IMG/VR virus record: IMGVR_UViG_3300021959_008125
Span: 1 to 64,000 of that record
From: a virus
DNA length: 64,000 bases
Direction: 5' to 3' (one strand)
Position numbers and translations under genes: made by a program. Below the pieces are notes generated by a model. That model searched no databases. It was not told where the DNA came from and was given only the letters and a program-made list of their open reading frames with translations. Shown piece by piece: positions 2 through 38,289 of this stretch. How positions within the stretch are numbered: the first letter of the stretch is position 1; each line of letters starts with the position of its first letter.

Positions 2-1432
2 GGAGCATTACATATTACTGGAGCGAACCTTTTGCTCAATGGTAGCGACATAGGTAATAGAATAACTATACTTGAAAATAGCAATACCGGTTCTTTAATC
101 TTTGGTGATTTACTAATTTGGACAGGATCGGTTGAAGACCGTCTTACAAACCTTTATATCCATAGTCAAAGCTTAAACGACTTTACAAGTTCTTATAATA
201 CTGGTTCATTTACAGGTAGTTTCATAGGAGATGGTTCTGGTTTAACAGGAATAGTATCCTCTTCTTATGCTCTTACTGCATCATTTGTGGAATGGGATAA
301 TGTAGAAAATAAACCTGACGGTATTATATCTAGGTCGGCTCAAATTACCGCTCTTGGATTTATATCTGAAAGTGCATCCGGAGTAAACTACATATCACAA
401 AGTACTTCACAATCTCTTACAGAAATTGAGGTAATAGATTATGATAATAACGTATCAGTAGACTTTACAACAGGAAGATTAAAATTTATCTTTGGCGCTC
501 CAGGAGTACCTTCAGATCTGAGTTTAACCTTAAGTGGGTTTGAAACAGACAGATTTAATAACGTAAATGATAATTACACTATTAATGGTAGTTGGAATAA
601 TCAAGGGTACACACTCATATCTGCTTCTTTATTCACCGGTTCTGTCCTCATAACAGAAGTTGGAACAGGAACAACCCTTTCTAATTCACCTACCACATCA
701 GGTTCTCAAGATTACAGATTAGAATATACAGCTAGTTCACCGTTAGATAGTTCAATATTTACCGGTTCAGTAACAGTAAGCGGCACTTTGTCTAAAGTAG
801 AACCAACAAATCCATCAGTTAGCTATACAGCTACAGTTCAGTTAGGTGCAACTTCTAATCAAATAGAACAAGGAGCGACGGGAAGTATTTCATTTACACC
901 TTCTTACGGAACAGCTAATGGATGGACCCAGACAAGTCTAACCACTGCTCCGCCTTCATCTCCATTTACTACAACAGGCTTTTCAGCAAGTCTTTCGATC
1001 ACTACTACTGCTAACTATGAATCTCCTGCTGGAGATAACATACCGCAGATATTTACCAATAAACAGAGTAATAGAACTTATTCTATTATTAGAAGTGTTA
1101 GATACGGAGCTTTAGCTTCATCTAGTCTTACTCAAAGCGAAATTGAAAATTTAGATGCTTGGGATACAACTTTAGGAGGAAGCGCCGGTACAGTAAATAA
1201 AGGTACTGTTAATCCAAACGGAGATAGTGGAACCTTTAGCTGGTCTGGGGATAAGTATCATTACATAATTTACAATTCAAGTCAAAGCGACTTAACCGAT
1301 ATAACTACAAGCGGATTCGGAGTATTTGGTCAATTTAGTAAATCTACAGTTGGGGACTATACTGTTTATATTACTAACGACTTACAAGCCGGAGGAGCTG
1401 GTACAAGTATAACTTATGATTTAGAAGTTTAA
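2..1432 (+). CDS. Ser/Thr-rich virion structural protein (5'-partial; frame open to window edge)
   Basis: Frame of ORF 32..1432 is open upstream to base 2 (GALHITGANL...). Many TGS/SAS/SSS motifs, VEWDNVENKP fibre motif, beta-rich C-terminus; directly precedes the tail fibre gene. Confidence 0.7.
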   Translation, partial: GALHITGANLLLNGSDIGNRITILENSNTGSLIFGDLLIWTGSVEDRLTNLYIHSQSLNDFTSSYNTGSFTGSFIGDGSGLTGIVSSSYALTASFVEWDNVENKPDGIISRSAQITALGFISESASGVNYISQSTSQSLTEIEVIDYDNNVSVDFTTGRLKFIFGAPGVPSDLSLTLSGFETDRFNNVNDNYTINGSWNNQGYTLISASLFTGSVLITEVGTGTTLSNSPTTSGSQDYRLEYTASSPLDSSIFTGSVTVSGTLSKVEPTNPSVSYTATVQLGATSNQIEQGATGSISFTPSYGTANGWTQTSLTTAPPSSPFTTTGFSASLSITTTANYESPAGDNIPQIFTNKQSNRTYSIIRSVRYGALASSSLTQSEIENLDAWDTTLGGSAGTVNKGTVNPNGDSGTFSWSGDKYHYIIYNSSQSDLTDITTSGFGVFGQFSKSTVGDYTVYITNDLQAGGAGTSITYDLEV

Positions 1433-1435
1433 GAT

Positions 1436-6379: not shown

Positions 6380-6382
6380 GTT

Positions 6383-7255: not shown

Positions 7256-7258
7256 ACT

Positions 7259-10510: not shown

Positions 10511-10517
10511 AAAGTAA

Positions 10518-12093: not shown

Positions 12094-12648
12094 ATGGGTT
12101 TTAGTTTAAAAGGAGATTTTGATACAAGTTACGGAAGTGCTACAAATATTTATATTACTATAGGCAGCTTCCACTTTAAAAAATATACAGGTATAGTCTT
12201 TTTTAATTATACTTACTGGATAAACAAAAGCTATGCAGATAAGTACTATATAAAATACGAAGGTCAAGATACAATACCTGAACCTACAGGTAAACTTTCA
12301 GAAAGAATAGTAATTTACCCACAAGATAACAGCCAACCCAGAGACTACATTTTACCTCATGGGTTAGAGTTTTTTCTAGGTGAAGAACAAGAAGTTGAGG
12401 TTCCTAAAATAAATGTAATAGAAAAGAAAGAACAGGTTCCATTTATTACTTTCGATAAAGAAGGTAATGAAATTATATCCTACAGAGAAGAATTAACTAC
12501 TACAGAACAGATTAGTAATGAATCTGTAATAGAAAAAAGAAAAGTTTTAGATCTATCTATGCTTAATAATATTTATTCGTATGGGTATTCTAATATCAAA
12601 AAACATTTATCAAGTGTTTTTAGTGAAGATAGTTTTATAGAAGAATAG
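12094..12648 (+). CDS. Hypothetical phage protein
   Basis: Intact 184-aa ORF, tightly packed in operon. Confidence 0.5.
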   Translation: MGFSLKGDFDTSYGSATNIYITIGSFHFKKYTGIVFFNYTYWINKSYADKYYIKYEGQDTIPEPTGKLSERIVIYPQDNSQPRDYILPHGLEFFLGEEQEVEVPKINVIEKKEQVPFITFDKEGNEIISYREELTTTEQISNESVIEKRKVLDLSMLNNIYSYGYSNIKKHLSSVFSEDSFIEE

Positions 12649-12650
12649 TT

Positions 12651-13520
12651 TTGAATACAGTTTGGGTTTTAGAGAATATTAAGGGAAACCTTAATTCAAA
12701 AGATAATTATGCTAATAGTAAGTTAAACATACTACTACTCCTTGCATCAGTTTACTTATGGAAAAAAAACCATAGACAGGATAAATGTATTTTATATGCT
12801 GATGATTTAACTATAGATATACTATTAAAATTAAAAGTTTTAGACTTTTGGGATTCTATACGTCCTATGCCTACAACAAGGAGAATAGATAAAGAAGTAT
12901 TTTGGGCTTCACCTAAATTGGAAGTTTTAGCACAGCTAGACGAACCAGCTATTCTAATGGATAATGATACCCACGTCTACATCCCTTTGAGAGACTTTTT
13001 AAATAAAGATACTCTATATGTAATGCATTACGAGAACGGAGGTGGATATTATCCTAGTAGTGTGGATAAATACGTAAAACAGTTGACTTTTAAAAGAAGG
13101 TGGGAAACTGATTCTGTAAATGTAGGGTTCTTACACTTACCTGATCCAACTTTTACAAAGAAGTATGCAAATCAGAGTCTAGACATTATGGAAGAATTTA
13201 CCAAAATGGGAGTAAAAAACTCTCTTTATCTTATTTTCAGTGAACAGCTTTTACTAAAGACAATGTTAGAAGAAGAAAAAATAAAATATAAACCACTACT
13301 TTCTACTTACTACAACTGTAGAGAATGGGAATGGGGGGATGATCATCAAGAAGGTATATGGACATTTAAAGATTCGGGTGAATTTGTTAAACATTACGGA
13401 CCTTTGAAAAGAGATATAAAAGATAATAAAGGAAATCTAAATTACGAAAGTGAAATATCGCATTTACTTAATTGTATTAGACTCCCACATTTAGATTTAA
13501 GCATAATACCAGGAAGATAA
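12651..13520 (+). CDS. Putative GT-A nucleotide-sugar transferase (DUF6734-like)
   Basis: FWASPKL...ILMDND (DxD)...NVGFL...FSEQLLL. Confidence 0.6.
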   Translation: MNTVWVLENIKGNLNSKDNYANSKLNILLLLASVYLWKKNHRQDKCILYADDLTIDILLKLKVLDFWDSIRPMPTTRRIDKEVFWASPKLEVLAQLDEPAILMDNDTHVYIPLRDFLNKDTLYVMHYENGGGYYPSSVDKYVKQLTFKRRWETDSVNVGFLHLPDPTFTKKYANQSLDIMEEFTKMGVKNSLYLIFSEQLLLKTMLEEEKIKYKPLLSTYYNCREWEWGDDHQEGIWTFKDSGEFVKHYGPLKRDIKDNKGNLNYESEISHLLNCIRLPHLDLSIIPGR

Positions 13521-14281
13521 TGGGATTATTAGATAAAGAATTTATTAGACAATTTTTAACCAACAACCCTGAAAAAGTTAAAGATGCTGACGGTAAGATA
13601 AATACAGTTTTTAAATCCGTACCTTATAGATGGACTCACGGAGCTACCGACTTTCATTTAGGGGATGGGCTACTTATGTACGCTATTATACAGTTGATGA
13701 GGTATAAGAGTCTAGTATGTTTAGGATCCGGTGGAGGATTTATTCCTCGTATAATGACACAAGCAAGACTTGATCTACACGATCAAGAAATCTTTTCTGG
13801 TGATAAAGACTATAATCACGGTGATATAGGTGTAACATACCTTGTCGATGCAGCTAACGGTGTAGGAGGTAATATAGATTATTTAGAAAAAGATTCTTTC
13901 TTTAGATACCAATTTGCACCAAGATTCATAAAAGAAACAACTGAAAAAGCTTTCTACGATTTTTTCGTAAAACAAGATATTAAGATTGACTTTCTACATA
14001 TAGATGCAGGACATTCTTACGAAGACGTTAAAAGAGACTTTGAACTATATTCGACACTACTATCAGATTATGGAATGATATCAATTCACGATACTGATAA
14101 AAGATACCAAAAAGAATTTATAGTAACGGAAGATGAAAAAGAATACTTCCAAGAATGGGATGGACCAACAAAATTTATACAAGAAATAGGACCTGAATGG
14201 AAACAGTTTAATTTTTTTAATACCGGTATTCATCCTATGAAACCAGCCTCAACAGGATTAACATTATTACAGCGTGCCTAA
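13520..14281 (+). CDS. Class I SAM-dependent methyltransferase (Methyltransf_24-like)
   Basis: VCLGSGGG; IDFLHIDAGHSYEDVKRDF; GMISIHDT. Confidence 0.85.
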   Translation: MGLLDKEFIRQFLTNNPEKVKDADGKINTVFKSVPYRWTHGATDFHLGDGLLMYAIIQLMRYKSLVCLGSGGGFIPRIMTQARLDLHDQEIFSGDKDYNHGDIGVTYLVDAANGVGGNIDYLEKDSFFRYQFAPRFIKETTEKAFYDFFVKQDIKIDFLHIDAGHSYEDVKRDFELYSTLLSDYGMISIHDTDKRYQKEFIVTEDEKEYFQEWDGPTKFIQEIGPEWKQFNFFNTGIHPMKPASTGLTLLQRA

Positions 14282-15104: not shown

Positions 15105-15301
15105 GCAAAGTTAGTGAATCAAAAGTAGATTCGTTATTGTTAGAAGAGCGAAAAGTAGTAGCTCTTGAAAAAATTGCAACAACATTAGATGCCCTTACTG
15201 TTTGGTTTGAAGAAATCGACAAAGATGAGTGGAGTGAAAGACTTCAATGGTATCTTGCTTTATGGAAAGAAAAGTATATTGGTGACGATGTAGATGTATA
15301 A
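15101..15301 (+). CDS. Small Trp-rich hypothetical protein
   Basis: 66 aa, overlaps both neighbours (translational coupling). Confidence 0.55.
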   Translation: MSKVSESKVDSLLLEERKVVALEKIATTLDALTVWFEEIDKDEWSERLQWYLALWKEKYIGDDVDV

Positions 15302-23615: not shown

Positions 23616-23616
23616 T

Positions 23617-24552: not shown

Positions 24553-25319
24553 AAATAGGTATTATAGGAAAAGGAGTCGTCGGCACGGCTATCAAAAAAG
24601 GTTTTGAGAAAATTAAACACGAAGTAAGTTATCATGATATTAAACATGATACTAAAATACAAGATGTATTAAATACTGAAATTATTTATATCTGTGTTGG
24701 TACCCCATCGGATAACGAAGGTAATTGTAATATTTCTGCAGTTATTTCTGTGGTAAAAGAATTAAGTGAATTAGAATACAGAGGAATAGTAGCAATTAAA
24801 TCTACTGTTAAACCAGGTACTACTTTAAAACTCAAAGAAAAACACCCAGAACTAACTTTATGTTTTGTACCTGAATTTTTAAGAGAAAGGTGTGCCTATG
24901 AAGACTTTGTGTATAATAATAGTGTTTTAGTGGTTGGTACAGATAATGTTGATGTTTATAAAAAGATAGTTAAATCTCATGGTGTTTTACCTACACATAA
25001 GTTACAGTTATCTATACCTGAAGCAGAATTAATGAAGTATTTCTCTAATACGTATAAAGCGATGAGAATAACTTTTGCTAATTCTTTTTACAGGCTTGCT
25101 AAACATTTTGGTGCTAATTACGATGCAATTAAAGATGCTTTTTTATTCCATGCAGTAGAAGAAGGACATTACTTAAGAGTTAATAAAGACTTTGGGTACG
25201 GGTATGGCGGAATGTGTTTACCTAAAGATACTAAAGCGATGAAAAAATTAGTAGAAGAGGAAGGACTAGACTTAGGTATATTTAAGTTTATCGATGAAGA
25301 GAATGATAAATTTGTATGA
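24549..25319 (+). CDS. ugd: UDP-glucose/GDP-mannose dehydrogenase family, lacking C-terminal domain
   Basis: GIIGKGVVG; KSTV.PG; PEFLRE; AELMKY..N; GYGGMCLPKD. Confidence 0.88.
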   Translation: MKIGIIGKGVVGTAIKKGFEKIKHEVSYHDIKHDTKIQDVLNTEIIYICVGTPSDNEGNCNISAVISVVKELSELEYRGIVAIKSTVKPGTTLKLKEKHPELTLCFVPEFLRERCAYEDFVYNNSVLVVGTDNVDVYKKIVKSHGVLPTHKLQLSIPEAELMKYFSNTYKAMRITFANSFYRLAKHFGANYDAIKDAFLFHAVEEGHYLRVNKDFGYGYGGMCLPKDTKAMKKLVEEEGLDLGIFKFIDEENDKFV

Positions 25320-26173
25320 AAATAATTTCTGGAGAAGCTATTCAAGATTTATGTGGAGTAAGTATAAGTAAGCAAGAACATAAACCTTTTGAGAGTAGTA
25401 ATCAAATAGATTCTATAGATATAGATAATTTTGATTTTGAAAATTTTGACAACCCTTATAAAGTATATGTAAACAGTTCTCTCATTAATCGAGTAAAGCC
25501 AAAGTTAATTGAATCGAAACTATATGAAAAACTTTCTAAGTTTCAAAACCCTTTCGACCTTATACTACATAACTCAGATGACTCTTTTAATGATGCACAT
25601 CTAAACTTTTTCAATTTACCTAAAGTTAAAAGAATATTTTCACAAAATGTCAACACTACTAATAGTAAGTTGATTCCTTTACCAATAGGTCTAGCAAACA
25701 GTTTTTGGAAGTGGGGCGATAAAGAGTACTTTAAAACAGAATTAAAAGAGCTTATTCCAAAAACTAAATTTATTCACTTTAACTTTACTGTTTATGATGG
25801 CGGGGTAAGAGATGAATATAGACCTCAATGTTATGAAGCTGCTATAAGTAAAGGGTTAGAAACTACACCCAGCTTTGAATTTAAAGAATATGTAAAAGAG
25901 TTAAAAAAATACAAATACAGCTTAAGCCCTGAAGGTAATGGAATAGATTGTTATAGAATGTGGGAATGTTTGTACCTTAAAGTTATACCTATATGCCATA
26001 GAAACATTTTAACTGAGTATTTTTCTAAGATTTTTCCTATAGTATTAGTAGACGATTGGAATGATTTAGATATAAACTACTTAGAAGAAAATTATGAAAA
26101 ACTTTCTAATTGGAAAAATTACTACTTGTTAGACTTAGATCTATATCTTAAACATATAAATTTTTATGATTAA
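25316..26173 (+). CDS. Exostosin-like (GT47) glycosyltransferase
   Basis: LHNSD; PIGL; YSLSPEGNGIDCYRMWECLYL.VIPI. Confidence 0.7.
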   Translation: MKIISGEAIQDLCGVSISKQEHKPFESSNQIDSIDIDNFDFENFDNPYKVYVNSSLINRVKPKLIESKLYEKLSKFQNPFDLILHNSDDSFNDAHLNFFNLPKVKRIFSQNVNTTNSKLIPLPIGLANSFWKWGDKEYFKTELKELIPKTKFIHFNFTVYDGGVRDEYRPQCYEAAISKGLETTPSFEFKEYVKELKKYKYSLSPEGNGIDCYRMWECLYLKVIPICHRNILTEYFSKIFPIVLVDDWNDLDINYLEENYEKLSNWKNYYLLDLDLYLKHINFYD

Positions 26174-26801
26174 CCATATTAATAAGTTTATTTTTTTACA
26201 TATTCCTAAAACAGGAGGAATGTCTATTGGACAAACTCTATACAATTTGATGGGAGTAACTAAAAAATATGACGGATTTAGAATACATCATGATGAATTT
26301 AATGAAGATATATTTAGAGATTACTTTGTTTTTACTTTTGTCCGAAATCCCTGGGATAGGTTATACTCCCAATATAAATTTAGACCTTTTCTTAAAGAAC
26401 ATAATTTTGAATACGCAGTTAATAATTTAGAAGATTTATTTGAACAAGAATTAGGCGGTATACCTGATAGTGCTAAGTACACTTTGAACACTCCTATTCA
26501 AACAGTATCAGATGGTTCCGGTGAATTCATACATTTAGCTAGTCAAGTAGAATTCCTTCAAGGAAAATTTAGTCAAAATGTTGATAGATTACCTTTTATA
26601 AATTTTATAGGTAGATTTGAAAATTTACAAGAAGATTTTAATTATGTGTGCAGTAAGATAGGAATACCACAAACACAGCTCTTACATATGAACAGAGGAA
26701 ACTCAAGTACACCTTATAAAGATATTTATAATAAAGAGTTAGTAGAAAAAACCAGAAAAAAATTTTCTGACGATATAAGTTATTTTAATTATGAGTTTTG
26801 A
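26166..26801 (+). CDS. Sulfotransferase family 2 (carbohydrate sulfotransferase-like)
   Basis: FLHIPKTGG (5'-PSB); FTFVRNPWDRLYS (3'-PB); FIGRFENL. Confidence 0.88.
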   Translation: MINHINKFIFLHIPKTGGMSIGQTLYNLMGVTKKYDGFRIHHDEFNEDIFRDYFVFTFVRNPWDRLYSQYKFRPFLKEHNFEYAVNNLEDLFEQELGGIPDSAKYTLNTPIQTVSDGSGEFIHLASQVEFLQGKFSQNVDRLPFINFIGRFENLQEDFNYVCSKIGIPQTQLLHMNRGNSSTPYKDIYNKELVEKTRKKFSDDISYFNYEF

Positions 26802-27606
26802 TAATCTTTATTTTAATAAAGTACACTATTACTTTGATACTTTTTCTCACTTAGAAAATTTTGATATTATACCGTATCAAAAAGTCGTAGACCTGTATTT
26901 AAAGAATCATACTACGTTAAAAAAAAGTAACCAAAGTTTTGGTGAAAACGAACGTCCATTAAATTCTAAAGTAGATAAGTTAGACAGAAAAGGATTTTGG
27001 TTTGGTTTTGCCCCTATGTACTTTGAGGTTGATAAGTACGTTCAGACTAAAGCTGATGTAATATCTATGGATATGGTTGGAGTTGGAGAAACTTGGGATA
27101 ATTTTATTTATTTAACTATTCCCGGAGAATTAATTAATAAGTTTATGAATAGTGTGCATGATAATGAGGACTTGACCCTTGCTAAACAATTTATAGACGA
27201 GGTTGAGAAAAAGGACCCTAACTGGGAAACCGAATACTACCTAGAACTACAATCAGAATACGATAAAAGATATAATGAACATTCAGAATATACTGATTAT
27301 TTTGAGACTCATAAGGTTCTGAAGTGGAGACAAGATATAAGCTTTGAACAATATCAGTCAATTAAACAAAACGGACTTATATACCCAATCTGTTATAATA
27401 ACTCAGAAGAAATCTTTGACAGAGGTACCCACCGCGCAGTTTTTCTAGCTAAAAGTAAAAGTGATGTACCTGTTTTTATACAGTTCCCTATAGATAAACC
27501 TTTAAATATGCAAATACATACTCCACCTCACTTTAGAGGATCAAAATTATTAATTGATTTAGATATACATAAAAAAAATATGGAGTTTAAATTTAAAGAT
27601 AGTTAA
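26791..27606 (+). CDS. Hypothetical protein with ParB/Srx-like C-terminal motif
   Basis: SIKQNGL.YPI...RGTHR. Confidence 0.45.
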   Translation: MSFDNLYFNKVHYYFDTFSHLENFDIIPYQKVVDLYLKNHTTLKKSNQSFGENERPLNSKVDKLDRKGFWFGFAPMYFEVDKYVQTKADVISMDMVGVGETWDNFIYLTIPGELINKFMNSVHDNEDLTLAKQFIDEVEKKDPNWETEYYLELQSEYDKRYNEHSEYTDYFETHKVLKWRQDISFEQYQSIKQNGLIYPICYNNSEEIFDRGTHRAVFLAKSKSDVPVFIQFPIDKPLNMQIHTPPHFRGSKLLIDLDIHKKNMEFKFKDS

Positions 27607-27607
27607 A

Positions 27608-28423
27608 ATGATACATATAATTACTTCCCACCATAATACTGAAGAGTTCATACTCCCTCAGATTCATTTTTTAAAGCAAAATTTAAAACAAGAGTATAAA
27701 ATATGGGCGTATTTTGACCCTGAGGATAAAAGTAAGATAAAAAAGTATAAAGACTATTTCTATTTTTTAGAGTATCCACCTTCTTTAATACAGATAATAA
27801 AACAAGGAGGTACAAGTAAAGATATAACATATAAAAACGAACCAGGTAGTTTAGATGCACATTACTTAAAACTAGACCACCTTACAAGTAAAGTAATTAC
27901 CGACGAAAATACAGATGATAATGATATTTTATTATTTTTAGACGGAGATTCTTTTCCTATCGCACCTATCGACGATTTTATAGAAGAAAAGCTCAAAAGA
28001 TATGAATTATGTGCTATTCAAAGATTAGAAAATGGATTTGATCTACAACCTCATGGTTCTTTTACTTTGACTACTGTAAAGCTTTTCAAAAGAATTAAAC
28101 CATCTTGGGCTCCTGGCTTTAGCTGGGTAAATGATTTTCTATCAGTAAGATCAGATGTAGGTGGTGAAATACTTCGTAAATTAATAGAACATAGAGTCGA
28201 CTGGTTTCCATTAAGAAGATCTAACAAACAAAATATACACCCAGTCTGCTTTGGAGTTTACGATGATCTTATTTATCACCACGGTGCAGGGTTTAGAGGT
28301 AAAATTGATGGATTTACTCTTAAACATAGACCTAACCAGAATACAGAAGAAATGTACGAGCAAGCAAGAATACTAGAAGATAGAATGAGTAAATTAGAAA
28401 CTTTTTATGATGTATTACTATGA
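27608..28423 (+). CDS. Putative GT-A glycosyltransferase
   Basis: LLFLDGDSFPI (DxD); DVGG; YHHG. Confidence 0.55.
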   Translation: MIHIITSHHNTEEFILPQIHFLKQNLKQEYKIWAYFDPEDKSKIKKYKDYFYFLEYPPSLIQIIKQGGTSKDITYKNEPGSLDAHYLKLDHLTSKVITDENTDDNDILLFLDGDSFPIAPIDDFIEEKLKRYELCAIQRLENGFDLQPHGSFTLTTVKLFKRIKPSWAPGFSWVNDFLSVRSDVGGEILRKLIEHRVDWFPLRRSNKQNIHPVCFGVYDDLIYHHGAGFRGKIDGFTLKHRPNQNTEEMYEQARILEDRMSKLETFYDVLL

Positions 28424-29094
28424 AAAAATTAGCAGTTTTAATTCACGCTCGTAGAGAAAGCACACGAGTACCTGACAAACATCTTAGACCTTTAGACTCG
28501 GCTGGATCATGTATGTTAGACATAGCTCTAAAAAATATAAGGGATTTAAAAAACGTCAACGAAAAATGGTTAGCAGCATGGGATGCAGATATAAAAGACA
28601 GGTATATACCAGGAGTTTCGATATTACATAGAGAAAGAGCATCTGTCGCACCTGGCAACTGTCACCACTCAATAATGTATAAACACTTAGAAGAAGTAAA
28701 ATCGGATTATATATGTAATTATAATCCATGCCAACCTTTTTTGGATGTTAGCAAAGTTCAAGAAGTCATAGATTGGTTTATATCTAGTAACTATGAAAGT
28801 GCTATAACAGTAAAAAAAGTAAGAAACTTTTTCTGGTACGATAATCTTAAACCAATTAACTTTAAACAAAAAGATAGATTATCAACTACTGCTGGTCCTT
28901 GGGTTTATGAAGCTACACATTCTTTAGTATTTTATAGAAAAGATTATATGTTGAACAATTGGGAATTATTTTCTAATGCAGAAAACGATCCTCATCCGTA
29001 TGTAATTGACTGGCCAGAAGAAGAGCTTGTGGATGTTGATACTGAGTTAGACTTTAAATTAGTAAAAACTTTATATAATGAAGTACATAATTGA
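28420..29094 (+). CDS. neuA: CMP-nonulosonate (acylneuraminate) cytidylyltransferase-like
   Basis: IHARRESTRVPDKHLR; NPCQPFL; VDVDTELDF. Confidence 0.8.
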   Translation: MKKLAVLIHARRESTRVPDKHLRPLDSAGSCMLDIALKNIRDLKNVNEKWLAAWDADIKDRYIPGVSILHRERASVAPGNCHHSIMYKHLEEVKSDYICNYNPCQPFLDVSKVQEVIDWFISSNYESAITVKKVRNFFWYDNLKPINFKQKDRLSTTAGPWVYEATHSLVFYRKDYMLNNWELFSNAENDPHPYVIDWPEEELVDVDTELDFKLVKTLYNEVHN

Positions 29095-29377
29095 TATAGA
29101 CAATACAATTTGTAAAGAGGAGGGACCTGTTATAGATAGAAGACCATACCTAGATAGAATAGAAAAAATTAATCAACTCTATGATGACGGTCATATTATT
29201 ATATTCTATACAGCAAGAGGAAATAAAAGCGGAAGAGGGGAAGCATATTATAGACCGATAACTGAAGCTCAATTAGAGAATTGGGGGTGTAAGTATCACC
29301 ATTTATTCTTTAAGCCTTTTGATGGTGATATATTTATAGATGATAGGAGTATTCATCCAAATGAATTTTTCAAGTAA
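29078..29377 (+). CDS. Cap-less HAD phosphatase (capsule-biosynthesis type)
   Basis: DIDNT; YTARG; K; FIDDR. Confidence 0.8.
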   Translation: MKYIIDIDNTICKEEGPVIDRRPYLDRIEKINQLYDDGHIIIFYTARGNKSGRGEAYYRPITEAQLENWGCKYHHLFFKPFDGDIFIDDRSIHPNEFFK

Positions 29378-30102
29378 TGAAACAGTTTTTTAATTTAGTT
29401 GTACCGATGGCCGGAAGAGGCTCAAGATTTACCGAACAAGGTTACACAGATTCAAAACCTTTTATCGATGTAAATGGAAAACCAATGATTCAAAGAGTCA
29501 TTGAGAACCTTAACTTTGAATTCAATCCAGATTTTAAGACTATAATTCTTTGTCAAAAATCAGATTATGAAAGATATGATTTTTCTATCTTTAAAGAGAT
29601 TATAGGACATAATAATATAGAAATTATTCAAGTCGACGGTATTACCGAAGGTGCAGCATGTACTTTGTTATTAGCAAAAGAATTCATTGATAGCGACGTT
29701 CCTATGTTATCATTTAACACTGATCAAATGATTGACTACGATGTTAACGGTACGTTCTTTAAAATGCAAAATTTTGACGGAGGTATACCTTGCTTTAAAG
29801 GAGATAGCACAGACTGGTCTTATGCTAAGACAGATGAAGTGGGATATGTAACTGAAGTAGCAGAAAAGAAAGTCATTTCAAATGATGCTACCGCAGGATA
29901 CTACTACTGGGCTAAAGGTTCTGATTTTGTTAAGTACGCAGAAGAAATGATTGCAGCTAACGATAGAGTAAATAATGAATTCTACGTAGCTCCAGTCTAT
30001 AATTATGCAATTAAAGATGGTAAAAAGATCTGCATTACATATGTAGATAAGGTATACGAATTAGGTACACCTTACTATTTAAAGAAGTTTTTAAATGGAT
30101 AA
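29377..30102 (+). CDS. Sugar-phosphate nucleotidyltransferase
   Basis: PMAGRGSRF; KPFI; EFYVAPVYN; LGTP. Confidence 0.82.
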   Translation: MKQFFNLVVPMAGRGSRFTEQGYTDSKPFIDVNGKPMIQRVIENLNFEFNPDFKTIILCQKSDYERYDFSIFKEIIGHNNIEIIQVDGITEGAACTLLLAKEFIDSDVPMLSFNTDQMIDYDVNGTFFKMQNFDGGIPCFKGDSTDWSYAKTDEVGYVTEVAEKKVISNDATAGYYYWAKGSDFVKYAEEMIAANDRVNNEFYVAPVYNYAIKDGKKICITYVDKVYELGTPYYLKKFLNG

Positions 30103-30748
30103 AAAAAGAGTTGCTATTTGCTTTTTTGGTCAGGTTAGAACTTTTAGAGTTTTAGATGAACTGTATAAAACTTTGAGTAGTGATAAGTTTGATGTAGATT
30201 ATTTTATAAGCACTTGGGATGATTTCAACGATAAATTTAAGTTTAATTTTTGCACAAAAAAAGAGTTCATCAAACCAGATATTATAAAATTTAAAAATAA
30301 TACGGATAGAGCAGCATATACTCTTTTTAGAGTAAATAATTTAAAATCAAGATTTGAAATAGATAATAACTTTATATACGACTGTGTGGTATGGACAAGA
30401 TCAGAAATTCTTTTTAAAGAAGATAGTTTAATAAATTTATTAGAAGATAAAATTTTTAACTGTGAAGATTACGAAATCAATACTTTGAGTAGTATAAAAG
30501 TAAATAAACAGAAAATTCCACATCTTCCTTTAGACTATTTCTACTTAGGTTCATCATTAGCTTTTGATCTTTACTCTACTGGATGGAAATCTTACTTTAA
30601 AAGTAAAAAGAAACCCTATGTAGGTCAAACTTACGGTGGTCATACCTTCCATCCTCATTGTATTTTAAAAAATAACTTAAAATTGAATGAAGTAAATATT
30701 CCTAACAAGTTTTTATTTAATCAAACAAAACAGAGAGAGATAAAGTAA
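30095..30748 (+). CDS. Putative glycosyltransferase-like protein (paralog 2)
   Basis: RVAICFFGQVR; FISTW; YDCVVWTRSE; DYFYLG. Confidence 0.55.
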   Translation: MDKKRVAICFFGQVRTFRVLDELYKTLSSDKFDVDYFISTWDDFNDKFKFNFCTKKEFIKPDIIKFKNNTDRAAYTLFRVNNLKSRFEIDNNFIYDCVVWTRSEILFKEDSLINLLEDKIFNCEDYEINTLSSIKVNKQKIPHLPLDYFYLGSSLAFDLYSTGWKSYFKSKKKPYVGQTYGGHTFHPHCILKNNLKLNEVNIPNKFLFNQTKQREIK

Positions 30749-31683
30749 TGAAACCATTAACATATATAAATCTAGAAACTACTAATTACTGTAATTTAGA
30801 TTGTTCTTTTTGTGATAGATCTAATGTTATTCACAGACTAGAACATATGTCTGTTGAAAGATTTATTCACATAATGGAAAAACTTAAACATCATCCTTTA
30901 GATAGAGCAAAACTTATGGGTCTCGGCGAACCATACCTTAATCCTAAATTTGATGTATTATGTAGAATATTTAAAGAATATTTTCCTAAAACTACTCTCA
31001 TTGTTGCCACTAATTGCCAGTACCCTATTAAAGAAGGGAGTAAGATGAGAGCTAGATTGCAAGAAACAATGAAATATATAGATCTTTTATACTTAAGTAT
31101 CGACGGTTATGAAGAAAGTTATGAAAGAGATAGATCACCAGCTAAATGGTCAAGGTTATTAGAATTTTTAGATAATTTTAAAAATATAGATAAACATAAA
31201 TGTAAGGTCACTTGTAATTATGTAGTTAACCCTCATAATATTAACGACATACAGACTTTGTACGATAATATAATAGTACCTAACAATATAGAAGAATTAA
31301 GATTAAATATAGCTCAAGAGTGGGCAGAAGATAAAACTATGGTCGGGGGATACACGAAAGAACAGCTATCTTATCTTAAAGAAAATTGGTCGGAAAATAT
31401 TAAAGGGATCCCCTACTGGGATTACGATCAATGTGTTTGGGTAAGAGAGTCTTCTTATATTACTGTAGACGGCGGGGTAGAAATGTGCTGTATGAATTCC
31501 TCTGTGAAAAAATTTGGCAATATACTCGATGATGATATTGATAATATAAGACAGTCGGAAAGATTCCAAGCAGTTAAAAAAGGATGTGATACTAACAACC
31601 CTACTTCACACTGTGTTAACTGTAGTTATAAAGAACTAAATAAAACTCTTAATTATTTAATAGGAGATGAAAAAACACCTTAA
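30748..31683 (+). CDS. Radical SAM/SPASM domain protein
   Basis: CNLDCSFC; GLGEP; C-terminal C.W...G.V.MCC...GN...C..C. Confidence 0.88.
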   Translation: MKPLTYINLETTNYCNLDCSFCDRSNVIHRLEHMSVERFIHIMEKLKHHPLDRAKLMGLGEPYLNPKFDVLCRIFKEYFPKTTLIVATNCQYPIKEGSKMRARLQETMKYIDLLYLSIDGYEESYERDRSPAKWSRLLEFLDNFKNIDKHKCKVTCNYVVNPHNINDIQTLYDNIIVPNNIEELRLNIAQEWAEDKTMVGGYTKEQLSYLKENWSENIKGIPYWDYDQCVWVRESSYITVDGGVEMCCMNSSVKKFGNILDDDIDNIRQSERFQAVKKGCDTNNPTSHCVNCSYKELNKTLNYLIGDEKTP

Positions 31684-32668
31684 TAGTATTTATAGAAAGA
31701 CTAACCAAGAAGATAAATCTAAATATGAGTACGTCCTTACTCAAAATGAGAGAAATCATTCTATAGATTCGGATTTGTTAAATAAGTTTTTTAACTCCCT
31801 TAATCAAAAAGACATATGTTTTTATCCAAACACAGAAAACCTCAAAAGTAAAATAAGCAAATATTTTAATATTGGGCAAAGTAATTTACTTCTTACACCC
31901 GGTTCTTCTTTCTCTATAAAGACTATTTTTGAAACATTTGACGTAAAAGATAAAAACGTAATTACATCAGACTACTTTTTTCCTATGTATCAAGTTTACA
32001 GTGATTTATATCAGTGTACTCTTAAAAAAGCTAAATATTGTGGAATGAAGCTTCGTACAACAGATTTGATTAATTTGATTGATAGAAATACTAAGTTTAT
32101 TATTTTAGCTAATCCAAATTCTCCATTAGGAGATACCTACAATCTTACCGATATTTTAGAACTTTTAAATACCGGTATTTATGTTGTAATAGATGAAGCC
32201 TATATTGAATTTACAGATCAACCGTCTGTTGTTTCTTTAGTAGATAAACACAAAAACCTAATAGTCACAAAAACTTTTTCTAAGGCTTACGGAGCAGCAG
32301 GCTGTAGAACTGGTTTTTTAGTAAGCTGTGAAGAAAATATAGAAATACTTTCCAAATTCAGGTTGATGTATGAAATAAATTCCATAGGCGTAAAGTATAC
32401 TGAATTTATTTTAGATAATATAGATTATTTTAATTCGTATATAGAAGAAACTAAAGACAATAAAAAATTTTTAGTAAATAAACTTAAAAGTAAAGATTTT
32501 GAAATTATAGATACTGATGCAAGCTGGTTCTTTTTAAAACGGTATGGCAATATAGATAATCTTAAGTACTTTAACGACTTAGGTATCAGCCTAAGAACAC
32601 TTATATTACCTAACGGTCACGAATATATAAAATTTAACTATGATTTAAAGTTAAAAAATCTGTTTTGA
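31667..32668 (+). CDS. PLP-dependent class I/II aminotransferase (HisC/CobD-like)
   Basis: NPNSPLG; IDEAY; KTFSKAYGAAGCRTG. Confidence 0.85.
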   Translation: MKKHLNSIYRKTNQEDKSKYEYVLTQNERNHSIDSDLLNKFFNSLNQKDICFYPNTENLKSKISKYFNIGQSNLLLTPGSSFSIKTIFETFDVKDKNVITSDYFFPMYQVYSDLYQCTLKKAKYCGMKLRTTDLINLIDRNTKFIILANPNSPLGDTYNLTDILELLNTGIYVVIDEAYIEFTDQPSVVSLVDKHKNLIVTKTFSKAYGAAGCRTGFLVSCEENIEILSKFRLMYEINSIGVKYTEFILDNIDYFNSYIEETKDNKKFLVNKLKSKDFEIIDTDASWFFLKRYGNIDNLKYFNDLGISLRTLILPNGHEYIKFNYDLKLKNLF

Positions 32669-34029
32669 AAGTTATATTAAATCAAGGTAGTAAAAAAATA
32701 CTTAGAGAGGTATTTGAAGAAAATAACATATATCATTTTTCAGATTACCCTTATCAAGCTTTATGTGCTGACGCTAGTGTAAGGGACTTTGAAAAAGAAA
32801 TGGTTAATTTAAAATGGCTATTTGACCAAGATGGCTTTTATAATAGATTACCTCACTTTAGAACTTTTCAAAATAGATTAATAGAATTTAAATCGACTGC
32901 AGATTACTTACACAGCTTGAGACAGAGGTTGAATATTACTCATGAACTCATAGAATGTAATTTTAAATCTAATTTACCGGTACATATAAGTATAGTTCCT
33001 AGAGAAGATAAAGAAGAGTATACTTTAGATTTAACTAATATAGAATCTTTAAAGCAATTTACTTTTATTATACACCCTGGTCAGACAAGAGCCCAAGGAG
33101 CAGTATTTTTTAGAAAATCTTTAAAAAACGTAATGTTATATTCTCTTAAAAAATATAACATAAAAGTAAGTACTAATCTAGCATGTGAACAAATTACACA
33201 AATAGGTAGACTATTAGATTTTTATATACCCTATTCAAAAGACGGTTCTGATATATCTAATGAATCGTTCGTATATGAATTTTATATACCGCATATAAGA
33301 ATAAAAGAACACGTTCACGGTAAAAAAGCTAGTGTTAAAATTTTAAAAGCTGATTCTATACGCTCAGAAAATAATAGTGTCCATCCAAGCAGTTGGTATA
33401 TTACTAAAAGTTTTACAAGTTCTAATAAATTTTTTAATATACTGTTTAATAATAAATTCAAAATATATACTACTAATTTACAATTAGCTAAGGCTAATCA
33501 ATGTAAGGTTTTTAATAAAAATATATCCAAATTTTTAGGTACTGCTGATCCTAATTTAATTAGCAGGTTTATATACTACTTTAGAATTAATAGTATAGAA
33601 AGTTACAATCAACCTAGCACATGGATGAAAAATGCAAGAGTAGAAAATAGATACGACCTATTTAACTTAGAGTTAAATGAATTAGAGAAAGTATTTATGA
33701 AGAATGAAAGAGAGATAGAGAACGAGTTAGTGGAACAACAACAGCAAATATTTCCTTCAAAGGAATATATAGAATGCAAACAGAATTTTGAATTAACATC
33801 GATACCTAAATTAAATAAATTTAGAGGCTTCAGTATATTTAATAGACTCGATAAATATGTACCGACTATAGACTATTACGAGTTATTATTCTGTATCCCT
33901 GCTAATGTCACTATGAGTAAAAATAAAACTGAAAGCTTAGTAATAATTAATAATGAACATCCTTACTGGCAAACAGGTAATAACTACTCAGAGTTTATAA
34001 TAAACGATGATTTCTTAACAAGAATATGA
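32665..34029 (+). CDS. Hypothetical protein
   Basis: 454-aa ORF, TTG start overlapping upstream stop; HPGQTR motif. Confidence 0.5.
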   Translation: MKVILNQGSKKILREVFEENNIYHFSDYPYQALCADASVRDFEKEMVNLKWLFDQDGFYNRLPHFRTFQNRLIEFKSTADYLHSLRQRLNITHELIECNFKSNLPVHISIVPREDKEEYTLDLTNIESLKQFTFIIHPGQTRAQGAVFFRKSLKNVMLYSLKKYNIKVSTNLACEQITQIGRLLDFYIPYSKDGSDISNESFVYEFYIPHIRIKEHVHGKKASVKILKADSIRSENNSVHPSSWYITKSFTSSNKFFNILFNNKFKIYTTNLQLAKANQCKVFNKNISKFLGTADPNLISRFIYYFRINSIESYNQPSTWMKNARVENRYDLFNLELNELEKVFMKNEREIENELVEQQQQIFPSKEYIECKQNFELTSIPKLNKFRGFSIFNRLDKYVPTIDYYELLFCIPANVTMSKNKTESLVIINNEHPYWQTGNNYSEFIINDDFLTRI

Positions 34030-34832
34030 AGACTATAGGATTTTACACACCTTACAAACATCTACCAAATTTTAAAGAGTTTGTTGAATCTAAATTTATT
34101 TGTAGAGAACTAACAGGACCGATTCCGGAAGATGTAGATTATCTTTTTTGTGCACCAAACTATGCTAGATTTACAATCACAGATAAACATATAGAAGGAA
34201 CAGGAGTCAAAGCTATACTAACCCCGTCAACAGGCCGTAATCACATCGATGTTACATCTATACCTGTTTACGATATATTTCGAAGTAAAATATTAAAAGA
34301 GATTTACTCAACAGCTGAACATAACCTTTACCTTTGCTTACAAGTAGTTAGACAAGTTCCTCCTATTATAGAACTTAGAGATTTAACTTTAGGTATTATG
34401 GGATATGGACGTTTAGGTAAGATGCTAAAAAGAATAGCTAAACCTTTATTTAAAGAAGTCCTAGTGATGGATATAAATAAAACAGATGAAAGCTTCTATG
34501 ACAAAGTAGATATGTTAAGCATTAATATCAACCTTACCCCAGAAAATGAAAATATAATAAATGCTAATTTTATAGGTAAATTTAAAAAAAGTATCTATAT
34601 TGTAAATACAGCAAGAGGTGAAGTAGTTGATGAATCAGAATTAGTCAGACAAATTAATTTTGGAAAAGTAAAAGGATATGCAACCGATGTAGTTAAAGAA
34701 GAACATACAGCTAGTAGATCCTTTCTTACTATTATAGATCACCCTAAAATTTTCATTACACCTCATGTTGGCGGAACAGCATTATCAGCACAAGAAAAAG
34801 CCTATAGAGAAATTTTAAATAGCATATTATGA
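34026..34832 (+). CDS. D-isomer-specific 2-hydroxyacid dehydrogenase (SerA-like)
   Basis: STAEH; GIMGYGRLG; VNTARG; ITPHVGG. Confidence 0.85.
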   Translation: MKTIGFYTPYKHLPNFKEFVESKFICRELTGPIPEDVDYLFCAPNYARFTITDKHIEGTGVKAILTPSTGRNHIDVTSIPVYDIFRSKILKEIYSTAEHNLYLCLQVVRQVPPIIELRDLTLGIMGYGRLGKMLKRIAKPLFKEVLVMDINKTDESFYDKVDMLSININLTPENENIINANFIGKFKKSIYIVNTARGEVVDESELVRQINFGKVKGYATDVVKEEHTASRSFLTIIDHPKIFITPHVGGTALSAQEKAYREILNSIL

Positions 34833-35341
34833 AAGCACATTGGTCTCAATTTACTAAATATACTGATGTATTTAAATACATTCAAAAGTATAAACCTAAG
34901 TTAATTGTGGAGTATGGAGGCGGGCAGAGTACATTTTATATTAATCAATTACTAGATGAATTAGATTATGGCGGTAGAGTAGTAGCTTTTGAGTCAGAAA
35001 AGGAATGGATGAATGATCATATCGAAAAAGGATTTAATCGACACGGTAGTATACACTTAGTCCCTATTACCATGCAATGTAACATTAAAGGGCATTTAAG
35101 GTACGAACACTCTTTAGAAGGATTAGAAAAAGTAGATTTTATAATTTTGGACGGACCTGATTACAAAACTTACCCTGTTGTAGGAGGTACCCCAAGTAAT
35201 TTAACAACGAATATAGATGATTTAGTAGAGATTAAGGGAGAACCTATACCGTATTTTATAGACGGAAGAAGCGGGTGCGTAAACTACTACAGAGCCAAAT
35301 ACCCTACAGAATATCACATAAAACAGTTAACTAGAGAATGA
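34829..35341 (+). CDS. Class I SAM-dependent methyltransferase
   Basis: IVEYGGGQST; FES; DFIILDGP. Confidence 0.75.
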   Translation: MKAHWSQFTKYTDVFKYIQKYKPKLIVEYGGGQSTFYINQLLDELDYGGRVVAFESEKEWMNDHIEKGFNRHGSIHLVPITMQCNIKGHLRYEHSLEGLEKVDFIILDGPDYKTYPVVGGTPSNLTTNIDDLVEIKGEPIPYFIDGRSGCVNYYRAKYPTEYHIKQLTRE

Positions 35342-36171
35342 GAATTATCGCTGAACTTTGCCAAAACCATAATGGCAATCTAGATATATTAGAGCAGATG
35401 GTAAAGGCAGCATCTGAAAGCTGTGATATTGTAAAAATTCAAACCATACTTGCCGATAGTTTATCCAAAAGAGAACAGTATGAAAGCTTTAGACCTTATG
35501 AAGGTGAATATAAAAGACTAAAAGGATTAGAACTATCAGAAGAAGACGAAAAATTCTTTATAGATAAATGTAGAGAGTACGGTGTTGAACCTATGACTAC
35601 TCTATTTTCAAAAAATCAGATAGAAAGATTTAATCGCTTGGGATATAAAAAGCTCAAGATATCTGGGTATTCTATGAGAGCGTTTGATTACGGGAAAGCA
35701 TTAAAAGATATTGAGTTTGATGAACTATTCTTTTCTAATTCAAGTATGAGTCATCCTGAAATGAAGCGAACAGTCATTAATCTTAAGCAGATGGGTATTA
35801 AATTTACTATGCTACAGTGTACTTGCATATACCCTACACCGTTAGAAAAAGCTATGCTTCAAAATATTCCTTTCTTAAAACAAGAACTAGCATTAGATAG
35901 TATAGGTTATAGTGATCATTCTAATCCTTATGAAGATGGGTTATTGATACCTAAGTTAGCTATATTTTCTGGAGCTGATATATTAGAGAGACATTTTACT
36001 ATATTAGATGAAAAAGATACTAGAGACGGTAAAGTATCTATAACTCCTGAGATGGCTAAAGAACTTAAAGAATTTAGCCTTAGAGTACCTTTCCAGCAAT
36101 ACTGGAGATTAAATGAATTTAACGAAGAACAAAAATTTAACCATGAATACTACAGAGGAAGGTTCGTATAA
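35338..36171 (+). CDS. neuB: N-acetylneuraminate/nonulosonate synthase (NeuB family), no C-terminal SAF domain
   Basis: IIAELCQNHNG; KIQ; C...YP; GYSDHS; LERHFT. Confidence 0.88.
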   Translation: MRIIAELCQNHNGNLDILEQMVKAASESCDIVKIQTILADSLSKREQYESFRPYEGEYKRLKGLELSEEDEKFFIDKCREYGVEPMTTLFSKNQIERFNRLGYKKLKISGYSMRAFDYGKALKDIEFDELFFSNSSMSHPEMKRTVINLKQMGIKFTMLQCTCIYPTPLEKAMLQNIPFLKQELALDSIGYSDHSNPYEDGLLIPKLAIFSGADILERHFTILDEKDTRDGKVSITPEMAKELKEFSLRVPFQQYWRLNEFNEEQKFNHEYYRGRFV

Positions 36172-36481: not shown

Positions 36482-36510
36482 ATAGATAAAACACTTTAAC
36501 ATAAATTAAC

Positions 36511-38289
36511 ATGGCAGAAACTTTACTCTCTCCCGGTGTATTAGCAAGAGAAAATGATATCTCAGCTATTGCTCCTCTACCAGTTGAAGCCGGCGCTGCA
36601 ATTATTGGACCAGCCGTTAAAGGTCCAGTAGAAGAACCTACCTTAGTAACATCTTATGGTCAGTATCAAAGAATCTTTGGTACTACTTTCGAATCTGGAT
36701 CTACTAAACAGGAGTTTATTACTTCTATTGCTGCAAAATCTTACTTTAATCAAGGAGGAAATTCTCTATTAGTAACCAGAGTAGTTAGCGGTTCATTCTC
36801 ACAAGCTCAAAACACAGCAATTTCAGCAGCAACAGGATCGATCACTACTGCACCATTTAGTTTAAAAACTATTGGTAAAGGTGTGATTTACAACAATACT
36901 TCTGGTTCTGTTTACAATTCAGGATCACTATTAGATGAAAACTCAGATGGTTCGTTAAAATCAGGTTCAGCAGATAACCTTAGATGGGAGATCTCTAACA
37001 TTAATAATGCAAAAGGAACTTTCAGTCTTTTAGTACGAAGAGGAGATGATAGCACTAAGCAAAAAATTATATTAGAAACGTTTAACGATTTATCTTTAGA
37101 TCCTAACTCAGGAAATTATATTGAGAGAGTAATTGGTAATCAATATAAAACTAAGTCAACAGATGGAGATGTAACATATATCGATACTGTAGGCGAGTAT
37201 CCAAACAGATCTAACTACGTTTACGTAAGTGGAGTAAATAAACTACTAAACTATGTAGGAACTGATGGAATAACTATAGGTTCTAACGCTGACGGTCCTT
37301 ACTCTAGCTCACTACCTTCAGTACAGTCTGGTTCATTCTATGGTGCTACTGGAAAACTTGTAAATAACATATCAGGAAGTGGTGCAGTGGATAACTACTT
37401 TAAAGATATCGATAATATCGGTAGTCAAGGAGTACCAGCAACAGTTTATGCTGATTCTATCTCAATCTTAGAGAATAAAGATGAATATGTATTTAACATT
37501 ATTTCAGCACCTGGATTATTATACGACTTTGGAAGTCATAAAATTCAATTAGATTCAATTATTTCCTTAGCAGAAACAAGAGGAGATTGTATCGCAGTAA
37601 TTGATTTAGAGCAGCATGGAGCTACAGTATCTAATACAACTGCAGCAGCAGCAACAGTAAATAGTTCTTATGCAGCTTCTTACTGGCCATGGTTACAAAC
37701 TCAATCAGCTACAGGAAGAAACGTATGGGTTCCAGCTTCAACAGTAATTCCAGGAGTATACGCATTCTCAGACGGAGTATCAGCTCCATGGTTTGCTCCA
37801 GCAGGTCTTACTAGAGGAGGTATTCCTAACGTAATTCAAGCAGAAAGAAAATTAACAAGAGGTCAAAGAGATACTCTATATGCAGCTAATGTTAACCCAA
37901 TCGCTACATTCCCAGGAAGTGGAATTTCAGTATTCGGTCAGAAAACATTACAGAAACAAGGTACTGCCTTAGATAGAGTAAATGTAAGAAGATTGTTAAT
38001 CGACCTTAAGAAATTTATTGGAGATGTTTCTCAAACATTAGTATTCGAACAAAATACTACTTTAACACGAAACAGCTTCTTAGCAAGAGTTAATCCTTAC
38101 TTAGATTCAGTAGTACAAAGACAAGGTCTTTATGCTTACAGAGTAGTAATGGACGATACTAATAACACAGCAGACGTGATCGATAGAAACTATTTAGTAG
38201 GTCAGATTTATATCCAACCAGCTAAAACAGTTGAATTCATTGTACTAGATTTTACAATCGAACCAACAGGAGCTACTTTTACGGCATAA
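36511..38289 (+). CDS. Contractile tail sheath protein
   Basis: SPGV..RE.D; GP..KGP; YWPW; PWFAPAG..RG; NPI; FGQKT; RVNVRRL; I.IQP....EFI. Confidence 0.95.
   Translation: MAETLLSPGVLARENDISAIAPLPVEAGAAIIGPAVKGPVEEPTLVTSYGQYQRIFGTTFESGSTKQEFITSIAAKSYFNQGGNSLLVTRVVSGSFSQAQNTAISAATGSITTAPFSLKTIGKGVIYNNTSGSVYNSGSLLDENSDGSLKSGSADNLRWEISNINNAKGTFSLLVRRGDDSTKQKIILETFNDLSLDPNSGNYIERVIGNQYKTKSTDGDVTYIDTVGEYPNRSNYVYVSGVNKLLNYVGTDGITIGSNADGPYSSSLPSVQSGSFYGATGKLVNNISGSGAVDNYFKDIDNIGSQGVPATVYADSISILENKDEYVFNIISAPGLLYDFGSHKIQLDSIISLAETRGDCIAVIDLEQHGATVSNTTAAAATVNSSYAASYWPWLQTQSATGRNVWVPASTVIPGVYAFSDGVSAPWFAPAGLTRGGIPNVIQAERKLTRGQRDTLYAANVNPIATFPGSGISVFGQKTLQKQGTALDRVNVRRLLIDLKKFIGDVSQTLVFEQNTTLTRNSFLARVNPYLDSVVQRQGLYAYRVVMDDTNNTADVIDRNYLVGQIYIQPAKTVEFIVLDFTIEPTGATFTA

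Follow-up and report, generated by a model that had tools for sequence, protein, structure and literature searches.

Excess of a serine/threonine-glycine-serine tripeptide in tail fibres and tail sheath of a Flavobacterium-type phage: a possible O-glycosylation acceptor beside a glycan island

The window analyzed here comprises the first 64 kb of the 85,865-base virus contig IMGVR_UViG_3300021959_008125, and its main feature is the tripeptide [S/T]GS (serine or threonine, then glycine, then serine), whose frequency in the fibres and the sheath of this Flavobacterium-type phage is five to six times that expected. The nearest cultured relative is Flavobacterium phage vB_FspM_immuto (160 kb, hereafter immuto), with which gene order is kept and protein identities reach 63% for the sheath, 75% for the tube and 60-83% for replication proteins; the contig is regarded as that of an Immutovirus-like Flavobacterium myophage. 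All large open reading frames (ORFs) of the window lie on the plus strand, and a glycan island separates the fibre genes from the sheath gene. We tentatively regard [S/T]GS as a selected surface tag that would most likely be an acceptor for cytoplasmic O-glycosylation, served by the soluble phage enzymes of the same cassette, and we give this reading slightly less than an even chance. The tag would lie on accessory tail fibres and outer sheath domains, with [S/T]-A-S used more weakly.

The tripeptide and the proteins that carry it

The expected number of motifs was obtained for each ORF from 1000 shuffles of that protein's own sequence. Pooled over eleven serine-, threonine- and glycine-rich (S/T/G-rich) proteins of the contig, [S/T]GS occurs 85 times where 15.3 are expected (Poisson p ~6e-35), and permuting the order of its residues lowers the count about fourfold (85 versus 21 across the eleven proteins). 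TGS (45 versus 7.4) and SGS (40 versus 7.9) are the only common tripeptides that are so enriched. TGT, SGT, TGN, NGS and AGS occur in these proteins at chance level (about 1x), and no excess remains when the last residue is T, N, D or A or when the first is N, D or A. This specificity exceeds that of a generic glycine turn. Alanine at the central position is enriched more weakly, about two- to three-fold (SAS 17 versus 3 and 8 for its permutations, TAS 13 versus a permutation mean of 6), and SSS and TSS reach about 2x. A motif of the DNA itself is ruled out by the approximately 40 different 9-mers of codons that encode the tripeptide; the synonymous codons vary, and selection therefore acts on the protein. 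Internal duplication alone is likewise ruled out, as 23 independent contexts are left of the 32 motifs of the long fibre once its internal repeats are collapsed. The usual context is hydrophobic-x-[S/T]-G-S-hydrophobic, in turns and loops, with hydrophobic residues enriched at position -2 (43 of 85 motifs) and at position +3 (46 of 85). An aspartate or glutamate is found within four residues of 43 of the 85 motifs, and acidic neighbours are not prominent.

The carriers are listed in Table 1. The long tail fibre matches the PHROG family "long tail fiber distal subunit" as well as Pfam family PF13884 (residues 1560-1608, window 6115-6259); its C-terminus is a Peptidase_S74 intramolecular chaperone domain, and endosialidase-type fibres with such a domain cut off their own C-terminus after trimerization. 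Homologues of the 5'-truncated ORF at the start of the window adjoin the same island upstream in two other loci, with 13 motifs versus 2.6 expected (L147) and 15 versus 2.7 (L152). Beyond the end of the window, one of the four further enriched ORFs of the contig matches a PHROG "virion structural protein" family.

An earlier, sequence-only reading of the window had already proposed that [S/T]GS is concentrated in surface-exposed virion proteins. Its hand count of about 30 motifs in the fibre was close to the true number, and the ORFs beginning at 2, 6383, 7259, 10518 and 57575, in which it saw the motif recur, all exceed their shuffle expectation; the excess goes beyond S/G/T composition and is specific to the tripeptide, which that reading had named as a point to be checked. 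It also listed many TAS, SAS and SSS. Its statement that tube, tape measure and replication proteins lack the motif is correct as a count: the number is zero in these, including the replication enzymes, and also in all ORFs of the island, the 25 larger ones included, but few motifs are expected there, and because the summed expectation is small, these zeros carry little weight alone. Two stray single motifs, in ORFs 40334 and 60534, had been overlooked. Finally, the proposed distinction from the O-glycosylation sequon of the presumed Bacteroidota host agrees with our counts, as D[ST][AILVMT] is not enriched in the motif-rich proteins (39 versus 35.7 expected) and none of their N-termini carries a signal peptide.

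By its predicted fold, ORF 36511-38289 is a T4-type (gp18-like) contractile tail sheath: the model matches T4 gp18 and other sheaths (Foldseek, E down to 1e-22), and a tube homologue lies directly downstream. Its motifs are found at residues 62, 93, 108, 131, 137, 151, 273 and 288, and none occurs in residues 301-592, so that the earlier description of eight N-terminal motifs and a motif-free C-terminal core is accurate. In the AlphaFold2 (AF2) model (predicted local distance difference test score, pLDDT, 74), S62-G63-S64 forms a hairpin turn of two residues; of the other sites, six are in loops and one, site 273, is in a strand. Among 80 sheath relatives from IMG/VR, the motif occurs 377 times versus 74 expected, and sites 62, 93, 151 and 273 are each conserved in 54-63 of 83 relatives. 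One IMG/VR relative (L066) has tandem sheath genes (1680-3398 and 3438-5147), which are 54% and 52% identical to the sheath of the window and carry 5-6 motifs each.

The excess is a lineage trait and not a general one. Immuto shows it in its spike (26 versus 5.9), its sheath (7 versus 1.2) and a 373-residue protein (12 versus 1.3), and in the loci fetched, a 3-7x excess is seen in at least ten fibre families that BLAST does not relate to one another. The pattern extends to a large phage clade, with more than 598 relatives in IMG/VR for the sheath and at least 259 for the GT7-LamG glycosyltransferases described below, the latter in contigs as long as 287 kb. T4 shows no excess in its fibres, baseplate, sheath and capsid (7 versus 10.9), nor does any protein of G001, a 122-kb contig of the same clade (18 versus 25), whose sheath is free of the motif. 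Other S/T/G-rich fibres within the clade lack it as well (0 versus 4.9 in a fibre of the relative G002, 0 versus 10.3 in fibre family 131). T4, together with the G001 and G002 fibres, rules out that the excess is common to myovirus fibres and sheaths in general. The fibre of G002 (G002:C1:1-6645, 2214 residues) is a special case, as the sheath of the same genome has nine motifs; its zero count could mean that the motif is avoided in a receptor-binding fibre, or that this is a different type of fibre.

Table 1. Features of the contig with positions in the window coordinate system, and [S/T]GS counts versus shuffle expectation
Feature	Position	Strand	[S/T]GS versus expected	Remarks
S/T/G-rich fibre genes	2-11531	+		window layout
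Fibre-like S/T/G-rich ORF, 476 aa, 5'-truncated	2..1432	+	8 vs 2.2	no Pfam or PHROG match
Long tail fibre, 1647 aa	1436..6379	+	32 vs 4.65, z 12.9	
S/T/G-rich ORF, 290 aa	6383..7255	+	4 vs 0.9	no family match
Fibre or spike-like ORF, 1083 aa	7259..10510	+	7 vs 2.0	no family match
S/T/G-rich ORF, 337 aa	10518..11531	+	3 vs 0.5	
Glycan island, ~24 kb	11546-36171	+		between fibre genes and sheath gene
Conserved island core	12094..19518	+		uncharacterized 184-aa ORF, DUF6734, Methyltransf_24, GT2, two GT7-LamG, radical SAM (Pfam)
GT7-LamG paralogues, 33% mutual identity	15294-16706, 16703-18100	+		PF13733 + PF02709, E 1e-16 to 5e-23
Variable island part	19520..36171	+		sugar-nucleotide and tailoring genes (Pfam)
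Tail sheath, 592 aa	36511..38289	+	8 vs 1.0, z 7.3	
Tube, hub, tape measure	after sheath	+		window layout
Replication and 7-deazaguanine genes	after tail genes	+		window layout
S/T/G-rich orphan ORF, 308 aa	57575..58501	+	4 vs 1.1	amid replication genes; no significant family match; no signal peptide
Four further enriched ORFs, same contig	65697-72321		19 vs 2.9	past the window
aa, amino acids.

Fibres and glycan island as one exchangeable cassette

The link between motif-rich fibres and island is seen best in a pair of relatives, G005 and G001, whose backbone proteins are 97-100% identical on both sides of the sheath. What separates the two is a single 20.8-kb insertion immediately upstream of the sheath gene (G005:C1:31713-52491 versus G001:C1:78099-79013), which in G005 holds five S/T/G-rich ORFs with 35 motifs versus 7.2 expected, followed by an island core with 51-74% identity to that of the window in its named genes. 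G001 has neither these fibres nor the island. As the single insertion contains both, the motif-rich fibres and the glycan island constitute one exchangeable cassette, which has baseplate/fibre genes on one side and the sheath gene on the other, as in the window. The transferase genes of the window (one GT2 and the two GT7-LamG genes) are flanked by fibre genes and the sheath gene and in this way linked to structural genes. Over 56 GT7-LamG loci, the S/T/G-rich ORFs that lie upstream contain 442 motifs in total versus 176 expected.

The core of the island is constant and its remainder is not. The order of the core genes (184-residue ORF, DUF6734, methyltransferase, GT2, GT7-LamG twice, radical SAM) is kept in G005 and in 40 IMG/VR loci, and the gene content of the variable part differs among relatives. 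In the window, this part encodes a DUF6071 protein, a short UDP-glucose dehydrogenase, a Sulfotransfer_2 protein, a CMP-sugar synthetase, an NTP transferase, a radical SAM/SPASM protein, an aminotransferase, a 2-hydroxyacid dehydrogenase and NeuB. By profile and by model, the two GT7-LamG proteins are members of CAZy family GT7 with a GT-A fold. The AF2 model of ORF 16703-18100 (pLDDT 84.6) gave beta4GalT7 and beta4GalT1 as top Foldseek matches (root mean square deviation 1.6-2.6 A, 31-37% identity), with beta4GalT7 as best match in the PDB (36-37% identity over about 150 residues), and a pentraxin/LamG fold in addition. An identity of 31-37% between the catalytic part and the animal enzymes is unusually close for a phage-animal pair. 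No transmembrane-like segment was found in the 30 ORFs between 11546 and 36397, where the highest Kyte-Doolittle mean over 19 residues is 1.57. An island without transmembrane segments has no flippase, polymerase or oligosaccharyltransferase, so that any glycan would have to be assembled on a soluble acceptor within the cytoplasm and not on a membrane lipid for export.

Two details of the variable part deserve mention. The UDP-glucose dehydrogenase ORF (24549-25319) has 256 residues versus about 386-389 in relatives and matches in Pfam only the central domain and part of the NAD-binding domain; the gene may be truncated or split. The adjacent cluster at 25316-30102 combines a weak RXYLT1_C-like match with Sulfotransfer_2, a CMP-sugar synthetase and an IspD-like cytidylyltransferase, a combination suggestive of a glycan with ribitol-phosphate, xylose or sulfate.

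Glycosylation acceptor, structural turn or other tag

If the motif is an acceptor, the following sequence of events can be proposed. The island would provide the activated sugars, namely a nonulosonic acid (by NeuB and the CMP-sugar synthetase), a uronic acid (by the UDP-glucose dehydrogenase) and others. Before lysis, an initiating transferase, for which the highly conserved GT2 (14274-15104) and DUF6734 proteins are the candidates, would add the first sugar to a serine or threonine of the motif in fibre and sheath proteins that have already folded. Both beta4GalT7-like GT7-LamG enzymes would then extend the glycan, which could finally be tailored by the methyltransferases, the radical SAM enzymes and the sulfotransferase.

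Several observations weigh against this proposal. On the enzymatic side, no initiating protein O-glycosyltransferase was recognized among the island proteins, neither the GT2 nor the DUF6734 protein gave a match in PDB sequence searches, and the GT7 domain resembles, in its modelled fold, enzymes that act on sugar acceptors and not on protein. On the side of the substrates, the major capsid protein family, although exposed, has no more motifs than expected (4 versus 4.3), and the depletion of the motif in non-virion proteins is not significant (4 versus 7 per genome). Motif avoidance in enzymes was rejected: totals over homologues appear to show it (GT7-LamG 7 versus 31.6, tube 0 versus 6.4), but with one representative per family it is not significant (37 versus 43-47). 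On the side of the linkage, the upstream S/T/G-rich ORFs have no excess (ratio of 1.5 or less) in 24 of the 56 GT7-LamG loci, and G005 has the island but a motif-poor sheath. The complete genome of immuto, G002 and a further relative, G003, carry the motif without a GT7-LamG protein detectable by profile search, and immuto has no BLAST match (E < 1e-5) to any island protein of the window; its gp169 was considered as a hidden GT7-LamG and rejected, as the similarity is limited to the GT-A motif and the profile search is negative. G001 possesses GT4, GT4 and GT2 genes and yet shows no excess. No gene that tracks the motif trait was found: a family-by-locus association is confounded by the way in which the loci were anchored, and the only family present in the motif-positive genomes but not in G001 is a chain-linked group of common NAD-dependent epimerases.

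These observations narrow what the sequence-only reading had suggested. Its assignment of the motif to surface proteins holds for the fibre-like proteins and the outer sheath but not for the major capsid family, and the phrase "coating the virion" is too broad for the same reason. The idea that the adjacent machinery reads the motif is favoured by the cassette linkage and the soluble island, and is weakened by the missing initiating transferase and by the motif-positive relatives without GT7-LamG. The comparison of related phages with and without a glycan cluster, which it had called for, is likewise divided, with the G005/G001 pair and the pooled loci on one side and immuto, G002, G003, G001 and the loci without excess on the other. 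Mapping onto the sheath model, finally, placed the motifs mostly in loops, which a structural role could explain as well.

Could the motif simply be a piece of protein architecture? The main rival of the sequon reading is an unmodified structural element: [S/T]-G-S would form a tight beta-hairpin turn (type II', with glycine first and serine second in the loop) or a short loop, found in the beta-rich repeats of the fibres and the insertion domains of the sheath in this phage lineage and spread by descent, internal duplication and exchange of fibre cassettes, and the island would serve another target such as a host surface polysaccharide. We consider this rather unlikely. Glycine followed by serine is a classic type II' beta-turn, and the flanking hydrophobic residues, the S62-G63-S64 hairpin and the predominance of loop sites in the sheath model speak in its favour, and so do the nine of 32 fibre motifs that are copies in internal repeats, and the occurrence of the motif beside different, non-homologous glycan clusters combined with its lack in a phage that has glycosyltransferases. 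The sheath bears on both readings, in favour of this rival and against the acceptor. Most of the sheath excess stems from five positionally conserved SGS columns, namely 62, 93, 151, 273 and a fifth that aligns to position 265, where the sheath of the window itself has no motif; the other approximately 97 occurrences in the family, spread over 34 columns, resemble permuted controls. The sheath signal could thus be explained by a structural role of these five positions, and the number of sheath motifs correlates only weakly with the excess in neighbouring ORFs (rho 0.27, p 0.05).

On the other hand, a generic glycine turn should also enrich G-N, G-T and G-D and accept N, D or T before the glycine, all of which are at chance, and it should not be confined to the sheath and at least ten BLAST-unrelated fibre families while other S/T/G-rich fibres of the clade and those of T4 do without it. 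Against it also stands the joint gain and loss of motif-rich fibres and island. Moreover, each of the conserved sheath sites has been lost many times over the tree, in varied combinations, and one sequence has lost all five, which indicates that they are dispensable for the fold. At sites 62, 151 and 273, for which variants were tabulated, glycine is the most conserved residue and is kept more often than the flanking serines. This agrees with a turn, but taken together with the dispensability of the sites it suggests that the serines are selected for something other than the fold.

A second alternative accepts the tag but assigns it to another reader, either a host enzyme or a different phage cluster, or to a modification other than a sugar, such as phosphorylation or acylation. 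We regard this as improbable. The cluster in question has the core GT4-GT4-x-GT2 (x being a 150-residue ORF), as observed in immuto (NC_055915 49172-53029), G001 (G001:C1:10949-14769), G002 and G003; it is kept at 36-67% identity in these four large relatives that cover the region and is unrelated to the GT7-LamG island. The motif-positive relatives that lack GT7-LamG (immuto, G002 and G003) share it, and the contig of the window, with 86 kb versus 160 kb in immuto, does not extend to the corresponding region. Such a reader would also fit the clade-wide SGS sites of a sheath whose adjoining island is hypervariable. However, G001 has this core at 58-67% identity to immuto and nevertheless no excess and a motif-free sheath, the cassette difference between G005 and G001 points to the GT7-LamG island, and no candidate for a kinase or an acyltransferase was seen. 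That the excess is a mere artefact of composition or low complexity is very hard to maintain: the enriched proteins are all S/T/G-rich (24-39%), but their own shuffles give 5-7 times fewer motifs, permuted residue orders are rarer by the factor given above, the fibre contexts remain largely independent after repeat collapse, and equally S/T/G-rich fibres of G001, G002 and T4 have no excess, so that composition alone is ruled out by shuffles and order permutations.

We return to the acceptor reading and to what would follow from it. If it is true, glycosylated virion proteins could be recognized from sequence across a very abundant group of aquatic phages, the hypervariable glycan islands of 10-25 kb next to their fibre genes would find an explanation, and questions would be opened on host range, on protection from grazers and enzymes, and on the stickiness of particles in the sea. 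As the cultured relative immuto (host Flavobacterium sp. LMO8) has the same motif pattern, the idea is directly testable. Should the motif turn out to be structural instead, it would still serve as a helpful and highly specific marker for fibre and sheath domains of this kind. In its most far-reaching form, which we offer as a speculation that is unlikely to hold in all its parts, an abundant clade of aquatic phages would exchange cassettes that unite accessory tail fibres with the enzymes modifying these fibres. On exposed turns, the sequon [S/T]-G-S would receive an O-linked glycan while still in the cytoplasm; homologues of animal beta4GalT7 with a built-in lectin domain would lengthen it, and methyl, sulfate and nonulosonic acid groups would cap or tailor it, resulting in a proteoglycan- or mucin-like coat of the fibres whose glycan "serotypes" would change by cassette swap.

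Relation to known glycosylation systems

To our knowledge, experimental evidence for sugar coats of phage particles comes almost entirely from mycobacteriophages, and we know of no sequon for mycobacteriophage virion glycosylation or for that of any other phage. A literature search found no report of phage fibre or sheath glycosylation or of a TGS/SGS sequon, and no proteomic data for immuto or its relatives. Several known systems resemble the window in part.

Serine-rich repeat adhesins are O-glycosylated in the cytoplasm by GtfA/GtfB on S-x-S repeats (S-A-S, S-V-S), and S-A-S resembles the weaker [ST]-A-S component of the window proteins. In contrast to the window, where folded proteins carry scattered motifs and no GtfA/B-like pair is encoded in the island, that system acts on long low-complexity repeats, depends on accessory Sec export and uses GT4 enzymes. 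The polypeptide GalNAc-transferases of family GT27 likewise combine a GT-A catalytic domain with a lectin-like domain, and their lectin domain guides dense glycosylation of serine and threonine. Here, however, the fold search ranks beta4GalT7 and beta4GalT1 first, and the lectin-like domain of the phage proteins is of the pentraxin/LamG and not of the ricin type.

The Bacteroidota system is of interest because the likely host belongs to this phylum and because it, too, uses a three-residue sequon centred on serine or threonine, D-(S/T)-(A/I/L/V/M/T). It is periplasmic and transfers lipid-linked glycans, and Bacteroidota host glycans can end in nonulosonic acids. Unlike its substrates, the window proteins have no signal peptide, they contain this sequon at chance level, and the island encodes no membrane proteins.

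In the animal proteoglycan linkage pathway, a xylosyltransferase acts on Ser-Gly and is followed by beta4GalT7. The parallels are the serine beside glycine, beta4GalT7 as the closest relative of the phage GT7 proteins, and the presence of UDP-glucose dehydrogenase and Sulfotransfer_2 in the island. The differences are that no GT14 xylosyltransferase, GlcAT-I or polymerase was found in the island (Pfam detected neither GT14 (Branch) nor Xylo_C among its proteins, and an RXYLT1_C match at 25316-26173 is weak and below threshold), that the phage motif needs serine after the glycine and accepts threonine before it, that acidic neighbours are not prominent, and that the phage enzymes carry LamG domains.

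Mycobacteriophages finally provide the precedent for a phage-encoded system, and their virion O-glycosylation was reportedly described by Freeman et al. in 2023. The window differs in the placement of its candidate sites, which are internal tripeptides in fibres and outer sheath and are known here from sequence alone, with capsid and tube not enriched, and in its enzymes, which comprise GT7-LamG, GT2 and a nonulosonic acid pathway. For Che8, Corndog and Myrna, the account of PMC12619734 describes virion glycosylation by phage-encoded glycosyltransferases, with glycans, shown by mass spectrometry, on C-terminal extensions of capsid and tail tube subunits. What both systems would have in common are soluble phage glycosyltransferases encoded near structural genes, a modification that is proposed to occur in the cytoplasm, and a presumed shield at the surface of the particle.

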